A program made the position numbers and the translations under genes. This document shows positions 60,462 through 64,000 of a stretch of DNA of 64,000 nucleotides, piece by piece. This DNA is from Spizellomyces punctatus DAOM BR117 (Eukaryota). The stretch's first letter is position 1. Every line of letters starts with the position of its first letter. The stretch lies in the NCBI GenBank assembly GCA_000182565.2, contig KQ257452.1; one strand, written 5' to 3'. Under the pieces are notes generated by a model. It was not told the DNA's origin, made no database searches, and worked only from the letters and a program-made list of their open reading frames with translations.

Positions 60462-61785
60462 AGTCGCCTTCCTCAGTCAGTTTGAGTCCTTTTTATCAAT
60501 GTGAAGTGCGGGTTAAGATCAATCAGTCATAAGTAGGGGTGAGGGAAAAGTGTGTCGAGGGACTATTGATTGCACTACAGGTCGATCGCTCTCATTGTGC
60601 TTTCACTACCCAGGATCGTGCATGAATGGTCAGTATGTTTATATTTGCGTAACCATTGCCCGACGCGATCAAAAGCGTGTGCGTCTTAGGGATGAACTAA
60701 AAGCTTGCGGCTATTCATGAAGGTACAGCTGCCATTGCAGCCATTCACCTACATTAGAATCAATATCATTCGTAGATATCAGGTCAATTAAAGAGATTCA
60801 AGGAGGTGGGAACTCAACGTCCGATACTGCTCCTAAAAGTAAAGTCACATTCGCCAACTTTCCCGGATTTACTGATCAGTGCCAAAATACACATGGAACA
60901 CATGGATGTGGATGTTGATGATATGCGCCGTTGTTACATGAATTCAACTCCATGCTGGAGGGGTTCGCCAAAGCTTAACAAGTTGCTCATGTACAGAGCG
61001 ACGAATGTAAAAAGCGGATAGGGAAAGATCGTTGGCGCTCACTGATAGTCAGGTCACTCACTGCCGACTTTCATTCCAGTCCCGCAAAATTTGGTACTCT
61101 ACAGGAATAGATTTACATCACACTTACCATACCGCTCGCGCTGCTCACTATCCTTGACGGAAAGAAAGTGAGAAGGATCTATGTTCACCAGCAATGGAAA
61201 TGTTCCAAACAGTGTTCCAACCACGCCGTCGCTTACAAGACACGCCATGCTGAAGCAACCCCGACACCTTTGCTCAGCGATCGAAGCGCTGTGATCGCGG
61301 GAAACGTAAGCGCTGACGTAAACCACAGTCAGCATACATCACGTGCGCTCATTTCCCGTTGAGGAATTGCGGGAAGTTCTGCTTTTCATCCCAGCGGGAT
61401 TTGAAGGTTTTGGACGGGAAATCGCAAATGAACGAGATATTGTAGACCAGCAACGCAACGCTACTGGTTCTTCATTGCAATTACCAGCACACAAACGCAT
61501 TTCACACCTTCCCGGCCTCTAGCTGGTTGACATCCCGGAAGTGGTCGAACCAAGGTATGCCCAGATAATCGCCAGTTAAAAGTGAGATTACAATATTCAC
61601 AAACGGTACAGCATATTGCAGCAGATCTCCGTGCAGATCGCCGTCGAAACGTCAACTCGGACGGGGAACTCTTACGGGAAGAGCGTCGAGACTCAAGTGG
61701 CGCAGCATTTCATCTGACCCGATCAACTGTTGAAGGGTTTTAAACGCTTTGTCCTTTTGTCCATTAGTTTGATTTCTTTGCAAAC

Positions 61786-62861
61786 ATGTCCGCAAAACTC
61801 GACACGACAAAGCGCATCACCTTCATTGGTAGATAATGAATGTATGACCATCTTGGGAGAGCATGCTCCAACATTTCTTTTATAGGTGGTGGTAACATGG
61901 CAAACGCCATTATCGGCGGCTTGCTAGCCAACGGATATCCCCCAACAAACATCATTGTATCCGAGCCTTTCGAAGCTTCACGCGAAAAACTCCAATCCAC
62001 TTTTGGAGTATTAACGACCACTGACAATGCCGCTGCAGTGGCATTCTCTCAAGACCCAAAAAATGTTACAACACCGGCAGATTTGGTCATGCTGGCCGTG
62101 AAACCCCAGATAATGAGGGATGTCGCCCAAGGAATTGCCCACGCGGTGCAAAAGCACAAGCCTGTTGTGGTCACCATTGCGGCAGGAATAACGCTGAAGG
62201 ATTTAGCAAAGTGGTTGAGCTCGGACGCGCAGGGTAACGACATATCAGGCGCTCGATCACCCGCTTTGGTGCGAGTCATGCCCAATACGCCAGCACTGGT
62301 GTTGGAGGGCGCTACTGGTCTGTTTGCAAGCAGCGAGGTGACAGAGGAGCAAAAGACATTGGCATTCAATGTCTTGGGGGCAGTTTCTAAAAGTGCTTTC
62401 TGGGTGGAGCGAGAGGAGCTATTGGACGTTGTCACTGGATTGTCAGGTAAGCAGCCTAATATGGAAGCGTTCTCCATTAATGACCGTAACCCTATCGCAC
62501 TTTAGGATCTGGACCGGCATATTTCTTTCTAATGGTTGAATGTCTTGCAGCTGCGGCAACGGAGCTGGGTTTGCCATCTGAGGTTGCACAAGGTCTAGCA
62601 AGACAGACGTGTCTTGGTGCAGGCAGAATGCTAGTGGACACTGCTGAAGACCCGGCAGAACTACGGAGAAAGGTGACTTCTCCCAACGGTACAACGCATG
62701 CCGCCATTCAATCGCTAGAGGCAAGTGGAATGCGGCAAGCTTTCAAAGATGCCGTTGTCGCTGCCACTAAGCGGGGGGAGGAATTGGGAAAGATGTTCAG
62801 TCAGGTAGGACCTCCATCGCCTTTTCCGGTCATCGTCGATGCTAACAAAACCTTGTAGTAG
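61786..62861 (+). CDS. PRO3: Pyrroline-5-carboxylate reductase
   Basis: ITFIG|GGNMA, LAVKPQ, VRVMPNTPALV, DVVTGLSGSGPAY, LRRKVTSPNGTT. The 3' end depends on splicing (see findings). Confidence 0.96.
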
Positions 62862-64000
62862 CCAACGGTTAGCGGACCAAAATTGTAATCTGTTTGATGC
62901 GTTCATAGATCCGTAACTGCTCCAAAATATATACTCTGTGCGTTTGAGTATAAACCACACAAGGAAGCCGTGTGGAAGCTGTGGGATATGATATTCACAA
63001 AATATCGCCCTTTTCTCCTACACGTTGCCGTATTTACACCATTGACCCAGCTACCATATTACGGTCTTGCACCATGACCAATCTGACTAGTACATTAAAA
63101 ATCGCTCGTTCACAATTGCCGCCGACTTGTTACAGAATGGTTCGACTTTCGGCTGTTCACATCAACGTAATGGTACACGACAATCAATCCAAACACCAGA
63201 GCGCCGAGAAAGTTCACTCCTGCCGCTAGTTGATCGTCTGTTATCATGGCCAATACAATACGTAGCCTAAAAAGGGACTGCTCAATACGGCGAAAGACAA
63301 GATGACTTGGTTCTGGTCACTGCACGCGGGCCAGATGCCTCCGTTGCTCACCTTCCACACAACAACTAGAGTATTAGGCAAAAGTAACGTATCAGACAAT
63401 GTATCTTGCAGCGTCCGGCTGGCTACAAAGGGCAGAGTCGTGACGATCAAAAAGAGGATGGAAATGCGCGAGCGGTGAGTTTGCCCGCGTCCGCCAACTT
63501 GGGAGCCAAGCATCACGTGATTTCGAGGCTTGGATGGAGGTCCCTCGTCAGCCTCCCCGTCCCAGCATCGGATGGTGAATACACAGATCTATCACCGATT
63601 GTGCCCCATGATATTACATTTGCGGGTGACATTGAGGCGACCGCAGTGTGACAGAATTTACGGTCCTACTTACCACTTTCTTACCTTCATCTTCCTCGGC
63701 GCACTGCAAAGAGAGCTTCGGTATTGACTTTTGGATACAGGGAGATGGGGGACGAGGAGGAGGCTCCACGAAAGGGCGTGGGGAGCCTGGCAAAGTTTTT
63801 TGAATCCCAAATGCCCACTACTGACACATTATCGGCGGACCGAGGTCATAACAGTCATCACATACTACCAGGCTCCAATGTGGGCAGCAGACGCGTATCG
63901 ACTGTGGGGCGATTCACAACCTCTTCAGTACCAAAAAGGACATCAATCTACGAGCGCTCTGGAGTTTCGCCACCGATTGAGCGATCAATAGGGGGTTGGC

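Follow-up and report, generated by a model that had tools for sequence, protein, structure and literature searches.

Tandem splice acceptors and a likely optional peroxisomal signal on the pyrroline-5-carboxylate reductase of Spizellomyces punctatus

Introduction

The passages of PMC3798809, PMC4207609 and PMC9549241 that deal with the work of Freitag et al. (2012) describe glycolytic enzymes of Ustilago maydis and Aspergillus nidulans with cryptic peroxisomal targeting signals of type 1 (PTS1). The closest precedent for the gene studied here is YlMDH2 of Yarrowia lipolytica (Kabran et al. 2012, PMC3372373), whose last intron has, according to the relevant part of that paper, a pair of 3′ splice sites spaced 4 nt apart. 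Use of the upstream site results in a cytosolic protein with the end PAN and use of the downstream site in a peroxisomal one with the end AKI; the ratio of upstream to downstream reads varies between 0.9 and 5 with carbon source, and localization was shown with tagged isoforms (same part of PMC3372373). Here we analyze the gene for pyrroline-5-carboxylate (P5C) reductase (ProC/PRO3) of the chytrid Spizellomyces punctatus DAOM BR117, which lies on the plus strand of a 64,000-nucleotide stretch of contig KQ257452.1 (the window). Its last intron ends in a tandem TAG-TAG acceptor that gives rise to two proteins, one of which probably carries a peroxisomal signal.

In S. punctatus, two 3′ splice sites 3 nt apart are used, and only one of the two products has a PTS1-type end. 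The resemblance to the described part of YlMDH2 is close: in both cases one gene encodes an NAD(P)-linked oxidoreductase and has neighboring 3′ splice sites in its last intron, and in both the commoner upstream site leads to the cytosolic form (presumably cytosolic in S. punctatus) and the downstream site to the form with the PTS1-type end, with an upstream to downstream ratio of about 3 in S. punctatus. Unlike in YlMDH2, where the 4 nt spacing shifts the frame and thereby exchanges PAN for AKI, the two sites of S. punctatus are in frame, and the TAG of the second acceptor doubles as the stop of the shorter protein. Further differences lie in the enzyme, the phylum and the tripeptide (PKL), and the localization that was shown in Yarrowia is predicted from the sequence in S. 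punctatus. The isoforms of Ustilago and Aspergillus are alike in that a cytosolic enzyme has a minor isoform whose C-terminal extension carries a PTS1, produced by differential splicing or read-through, but the enzymes named in the passages cited above are GAPDH, PGK and TPI. Tandem acceptors of the NAGNAG type usually lead to one residue gained or lost. The S. punctatus gene shares with them two AGs that lie 3 nt apart and are both used, but here the inserted triplet is a stop, so that the choice of acceptor adds or removes a whole eight-residue tail.

The reviews PMC3798809, PMC9549241 and PMC4207609 list PTS1 isoforms made by splicing or read-through for GAPDH, PGK, TPI, 6-phosphogluconate dehydrogenase and hydroxypyruvate reductase, and P5C reductase is not among them in the passages concerned. 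Outside the fungi, the P5C reductase of Pelomyxa schiedti is described, in the section of PMC8887013 that treats it, as having a peroxisomal targeting signal and as putatively peroxisomal, the signal having been masked by a C-terminal tag in a yeast test. A review on Trypanosoma cruzi names P5C reductase in the enzyme legend of its section on the glycosome proteome (PMC7005584). A full-text literature search found no paper on a peroxisomal P5C reductase of a fungus, and the titles and abstract openings of the literature found hold nothing that links NAGNAG acceptors in fungi to targeting. Devices of this type have been described before, and the database already lists the splice isoforms; the enzyme, the use of an in-frame stop and the wide occurrence of PTS1-type ends on P5C reductases of early-diverging fungi appear to be unreported.

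Both acceptors of the last intron are used

An earlier note on this DNA, made from its letters alone, had described an exon ending in MFSQ, a donor GTAGGA, a branch point GCTAAC, a TAG-TAG acceptor and a tail PTVSGPKL, and sequence and translation bear out each of these at its position. Exon 3 ends with ATG TTC AGT CAG at 62804 (MFSQ, phase 0), where CAG encodes Q301. The donor follows at 62805-62810 and the branch-point-like GCTAAC at 62841-62846; TTGTAG ends at 62858, which places the first acceptor AG (AG1) at 62857-62858 and the second TAG, whose AG is the second acceptor (AG2), at 62859-62861. Downstream stands CCA ACG GTT AGC GGA CCA AAA TTG TAA (62862-62888). Splicing to AG1 makes TAG the next codon and gives a 301-aa protein ending in MFSQ, splicing to AG2 gives MFSQPTVSGPKL followed by a stop and a 309-aa protein ending in PTVSGPKL, and retention of the intron gives VGPPSPFPVIVDANKTL followed by two stops. 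With 54 or 57 nt, depending on the acceptor, the intron is similar in length to the other two of the gene (57 and 59 nt).

By itself, the TAG-TAG motif is not remarkable and is no more than chance would supply: in the window, NAG comes directly after 7.5% of AG dinucleotides and TAG after 1.1%, and a tripeptide of the type [SAPC][KRH][LMI] stands before about 0.75% of the stops in any frame. What raises the case above chance is the combination of RNA junctions with conservation of the tail in relatives.

The region 61650-63050 was compared with X8, X3, X4 and X5. The contigs of X3-X5 cross the introns without gaps, which indicates that they are DNA, and the RNA evidence comes from a single run, X8, labeled as S. 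punctatus, of which about 6% was read (60-nt reads with a 3′-end bias). In X8, 464 reads aligned, 403 of them at least 99% alike, with coverage heaped at the 3′ end; 375 of the 464 align to the stretch in part only. The AG1 junction (62804 to 62859, 54 nt skipped, GT..AG) is spanned by 10 reads with 8 start positions, and the AG2 junction (62804 to 62862, 57 nt skipped) by three reads with three start positions. Beyond these, 18 partly aligned reads in total correspond to AG1: seven stop at 62804 and continue with TAGCCAACGG..., and 11 begin at 62857 and are preceded by ...GATGTTCAGTC. A further 37 loose read ends have no displayed sequence, and partly aligned AG2 reads may be among them. Both AGs are thus used in RNA, AG1 more often, as the junction counts show. 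AG2 accounts for roughly 10-25% of transcripts, a ratio that is rough given 13 junction reads from a single run.

The public annotation already contains both proteins, the 309-aa form as the main product (KND03254.1/XP_016611293.1) and the 301-aa form labeled 'variant' (KND03253.1/XP_016611292.1), which means that the alternative acceptor is already in the database; it makes no statement on the meaning of the tail. Together with the junction counts, the two annotated isoforms uphold the proposal of the earlier note that the acceptor toggles between an immediate stop and an extended tail. Its third tail, from intron retention, finds no such support, since RNA depth within the intron is about zero. 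The mean depth of 9.9 in the bin 62825-62871, compared with 73 in the bin 62731-62777 and 55 in the bin that follows 62871, can be explained by the 13 exonic bases that this bin contains, which indicates that retention of intron 3 is low. Many X8 reads between 62672 and 63015 start with about nine unmatched bases that share an end ...AAAGTC, which look like adapter or primer remains.

The PTS1 form could instead be supplied, wholly or beside AG2 splicing, by ribosomes reading through the UAG of the AG1 transcript, a route that the earlier note had allowed for. The same tail does lie in frame behind that UAG, and a C follows the stop, a position at which a cytosine is tied to reduced termination efficiency in the pertinent section of PMC4207609. 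However, the read-through element given there is UGA CU(A), from which UAG CCA ACG differs, and the same section describes UGA as leakier than UAA or UAG. As AG2 splicing is seen directly and is enough to explain the 309-aa isoform, we regard a contribution of read-through as very unlikely.

The tail as a candidate PTS1

The AG2 isoform ends in the tripeptide PKL, and the AG1 isoform lacks a PTS1-type end. That PKL is a non-canonical PTS1 variant, as the earlier note had it, agrees with PMC3709128: the part concerned counts PKL, AKL and ARL among the functional PTS1s, and a table shows fungal orthologues of the known peroxisomal enzymes SidF and SidI exchanging SKL, AKL and PKL. A cotton isocitrate dehydrogenase that ends in PKL is likewise reported in peroxisomes in a passage of PMC9515950. 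A structure model of the protein (30-sequence alignment, pLDDT 92.7) places the last helix at residues 277-300 and shows residues 301-309 as coil, with pLDDT below 50 at 305-309. Because the last helix ends at residue 300, the last intron would lie at the exact end of the fold and exon 4 would encode a flexible tail only, and the C-terminus of the 309-aa form is predicted to be exposed and flexible. With good support from the comparison with other fungi, PTVSGPKL is likely, though well short of certain, to be a peroxisomal signal.

Conservation of the tail and PTS1-type ends in other fungi

The orthologue of Spizellomyces 'palustris' ends in PTVSGAKL, and the only change in its tail turns PKL into the canonical AKL. 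Powellomyces hirtus TPX62637.1, with an identity of 72% over exon 2 and 74% across the full protein, ends in TSDTGPKL, so that the last four residues are identical to those of S. punctatus and the first four different. In KAI8919218.1, another annotation of P. hirtus, the protein continues past the same junction as VSVPWLSVEF..., which has only the first V in common with the S. punctatus retention peptide VGPPSPF.... As the intron-derived peptides and the first half of the tail differ and the last four residues are kept, the sequence from the junction to the tail has diverged and the end of the tail has not; three species, belonging to two genera, keep G[AP]KL and the stop behind it in frame. 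The P5C reductase of a further chytrid, Phlyctochytrium planicorne, ends in GSSGAKI.

Two other lines contributed little to this comparison. We had considered that endings with Q followed by V mark unspliced GT donors, and with them an intron conserved in many chytrids, but this was dropped as a general claim because P0408 and P0413, two unnamed short P5C reductases, have V-containing tails with PTS1-type ends of their own. When the C-terminus of the other Powellomyces annotation (P0123) was back-translated, only 72 of 864 possible DNA versions had [AV][KR]L before a stop in another frame, a result that is compatible with a tail but too weak to count. A metagenome scan with exon 3 yielded no chytrid DNA in the 17 loci examined of 80; 16 of the 17 are continuous open reading frames with a G+C content of 0.50-0.70 that look bacterial. 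The metagenome contig L001:1-912 (G+C 0.31) contains an intron-free P5C reductase that is 60% identical to exon 3, and its product ends in EVFGQQ-stop like the Piromyces protein P0112, with no PTS1-like end.

Among 234 collected P5C reductase proteins of at least 250 aa, 16 have PTS1-like ends. Those from named early-diverging fungi are Geranomyces (AKF), Borealophlyctis (GKL), Linnemannia/Mortierella (AKL), Smittium culicis (SKL), Syncephalis fuscata (AKI), Coemansia (GKL) and Ambispora (GKI), plus the chytrids named above; the other five are two Aspergillus proteins (GKL), two unnamed ones (PKL and GRL) and P0055, which ends at the exon 2 boundary (...GLSGKF). Among short protein fragments, 6 of 120 have such ends, and none is from a close Spizellomyces relative with a spliced tail. 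Two of the six, the unnamed P0408 (...GNQVGSSRL) and P0413 (...GQQVSKM) from public assemblies, have canonical PTS1-type ends. An ascomycete P5C reductase, P0010 from Ascodesmis nigricans, shares 63% identity with the chytrid exon 2, which is within the chytrid range and closest among Dikarya, the others among the matches listed being at most 55% identical; gene transfer, contamination or slow evolution might explain this likeness.

A search with the Linnemannia protein retrieved 68 sequences that are at least 63% identical (P0134 and P0291-P0357, cluster representatives), all named ones from Mortierellomycota, and these form two paralogue groups. Every one of the 68 ends in x[KR][LM]: SKL 35, AKL 13, NKL 7, TKL 7, PKL 3, and PRL, PKM and SRL one each. 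Such an end is present in only one of the other 52 matches of this search (Mucorales, Umbelopsis, Basidiobolus and others), that of Ambispora (GKI). With K-L fixed and position -3 freely exchanged, the Mortierellomycota-type ends look as a PTS1 would be expected to, and the set on this same enzyme includes PKL. The search for PTS1 ends in other early-diverging fungi that the earlier note had called for was thus positive, with all 68 Mortierellomycota-type sequences, Smittium SKL and Syncephalis AKI. The reductases of Mortierellomycota, Smittium, Syncephalis and Coemansia belong to the same family and have PTS1-type ends, PKL included in three Mortierellomycota-type proteins, but in these fungi the signal is on the only annotated product, whereas in S. 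punctatus it is optional and set by the choice of acceptor.

Several points weigh against a targeting role of the tail. Proline at position -3 is non-canonical for a PTS1. An [AP]KL end is present in only three of nine annotated Spizellomycetales models, which could reflect either absence of the tail or a miss by the gene predictor. Ends at the junction or shortly past it are found in Gaertneriomyces semiglobifer (MFSQ), Thoreauomyces (QVRTN), Geranomyces (NVSAAKF) and Fimicolochytrium (KLFA), and the protein of Gaertneriomyces sp. JEL0708 continues with RIHALVEK...; PTS1-like ends occur in 5 of 24 named chytrids among the matches listed. To these come the roughness of the isoform ratio and the fact that many genes have tandem NAG acceptors whose wobble serves no function.

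These points could be taken together as splicing noise, that is, slippage between adjacent AGs in which the 309-aa form would arise as an innocuous side product and PKL as an accident of the 3′ untranslated region (UTR). The frequencies of NAG after AG and of PTS1-like tripeptides before stops in the window are compatible with this, as are the minor share of AG2 (3 of 13 junction reads) and the several annotated proteins of relatives that have no tail. Noise does not, however, readily account for a G[AP]KL-stop that is kept in frame although the first half of the tail and the intron peptides have diverged, nor for the fact that the lone change at position -3, P to A, yields a canonical PTS1. 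The PTS1-type ends on the same enzyme in all Mortierellomycota-type sequences and several Zoopagomycota speak against an accident as well, and we consider noise an unlikely explanation.

The Mortierellomycota proteins also bear on a different alternative, in which the tail is a real PTS1 but the toggle is meaningless: the PTS1 form would be the intended product, and either the AG1 form would be a tolerated truncation or incomplete import would supply most of the cytosolic pool. In Mortierellomycota the signal is on both paralogues, with no signal-free form apparent in the protein lists, and the public annotation of S. punctatus has the 309-aa form as main product. Yet AG1 is the major junction, with 10 reads to 3 and the 18 partly aligned reads in addition. 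To our knowledge, the fungi investigated to date make their proline in the cytosol, which also weighs against this alternative. In the part of PMC3372373 on Yarrowia MDH2, the upstream site is likewise the commoner one and gives the cytosolic form. A real signal behind a meaningless choice of acceptor therefore seems quite improbable.

Proposed mechanism and possible roles

We propose that one P5C reductase gene would make two proteins by means of the tandem TAG-TAG acceptor of its last intron. With the commoner AG1, the second TAG would act as an in-frame stop and yield a 301-aa enzyme that ends at its last helix and is presumably cytosolic. With AG2, the TAG would leave with the intron and PTVSGPKL would be added, serving as a flexible linker and a PTS1-type tripeptide that Pex5 could recognize, so that a minority of the enzyme, corresponding to the AG2 share of transcripts (~10-25%), would enter peroxisomes. 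What we observe is the sequence, that both acceptors are used and that the tail end is conserved; we infer Pex5 binding, import and the role in the organelle. A splice toggle that distributes P5C reductase between cytosol and peroxisome is, as a whole explanation, the one we hold to be probable.

The likeliest role in the peroxisome would be to reduce a small cyclic imine at the expense of NAD(P)H, with P5C (reduced to proline, in a redox shuttle) and piperideine-6-carboxylate (reduced to pipecolate) as candidate substrates between which we make no choice. P5C and proline are small enough for the pores of the peroxisomal membrane. As P5C reductase oxidizes NAD(P)H and both metabolites could pass these pores, a shuttle in which P5C enters and proline leaves is plausible, but the proline/P5C redox shuttle that the earlier note had suggested remains speculative. 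Between peroxisome and cytosol NAD(P)H cannot be exchanged, and peroxisomes rely on metabolite shuttles, of which the section concerned in PMC9549241 names malate, glycerol-3-phosphate and GAPDH-linked ones, calling it unclear why cells keep several. For the second substrate, a passage of PMC9854754 states that peroxisomal saccharopine oxidase makes piperideine-6-carboxylate and that P5C reductase can reduce this product to pipecolate.

More tentatively, peroxisomal P5C reductase might be old and widespread in early-diverging fungi and form an unrecognized shuttle that reoxidizes peroxisomal NAD(P)H, an idea that we regard as possible but doubtful. It would then be constitutive on both Mortierellomycota paralogues, present in some Zoopagomycota, optional in spizellomycetes and absent in the sampled Mucorales and Dikarya. 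The shuttle could run with P5C entering and proline leaving to mitochondrial proline dehydrogenase, or with piperideine-6-carboxylate converted into pipecolate, and the splice ratio of chytrids might tune it, for example in lipid-burning zoospores, where microbodies lie against the lipid globule and the mitochondrion. If true, the P5C/proline or piperideine-6-carboxylate/pipecolate pair would be a further peroxisomal shuttle, built on amino-acid metabolism. The device would be an economical one, with a single TAG serving as acceptor or as stop codon, and it stands in a species that is transformable.

Gene layout and neighboring transcript

By its domains and its identity to a named protein the gene product is assigned as a P5C reductase: the Rossmann domain in exon 2 scores 47.2 bits against a cut-off of 21.6, the dimerization domain in exon 3 scores 110.3 bits against a cut-off of 25, and the exon 2 protein is 100% identical to a public protein named pyrroline-5-carboxylate reductase. 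A protein search with exon 2 gave no second P5C reductase of S. punctatus among the 120 matches listed. The layout of the gene is given in Table 1.

Table 1. Positions of exons, introns and 3′ UTR of the S. punctatus P5C reductase gene, numbered from the first letter of the window
Feature	Position	Strand	Basis or remark
Exon 1	61786..61828	+	MSAKLDTTKRITFI and first base of Gly codon; splice-derived translation matches the public 309-aa/301-aa proteins
Intron 1, 57 nt, GTAGAT...TATAG	61829..61885	+	Absent from annotated protein
Exon 2, NADP-binding Rossmann domain	61886..62446	+	Pfam PF03807, E 3.4e-12
Intron 2, 59 nt, GTAAGC...TTTAG	62447..62505	+	RNA depth 0 in bin 62449-62495
Exon 3, P5CR dimerization domain, ending ...GKMFSQ	62506..62804	+	Pfam PF14748, E 7e-32
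Intron 3, short form, 54 nt	62805..62858	+	Sequence; 10 junction reads and 7 + 11 partly aligned reads
Dual-role TAG: stop of 301-aa isoform (AG1) or end of 57-nt intron with second acceptor (AG2)	62859..62861	+	Sequence, 3 junction reads, annotation
Exon 4, coding in AG2 isoform (PTVSGPKL and TAA), 3′ UTR in AG1 isoform	62862..62888	+	Translation; relatives; model
3′ UTR, end approximate	62889..62990	+	Plus-strand depth falls from 41 (bin 62919-62965) to 5 (bin 62966-63012)

Between 62919 and 63050, a convergent transcript on the minus strand ends in or just past the 3′ UTR of the reductase gene, so that some tens of bases are common to both mRNAs; minus-strand depth in X8 goes up from 62919 onward. 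Three of seven minus-strand reads have T in place of G at 62946.

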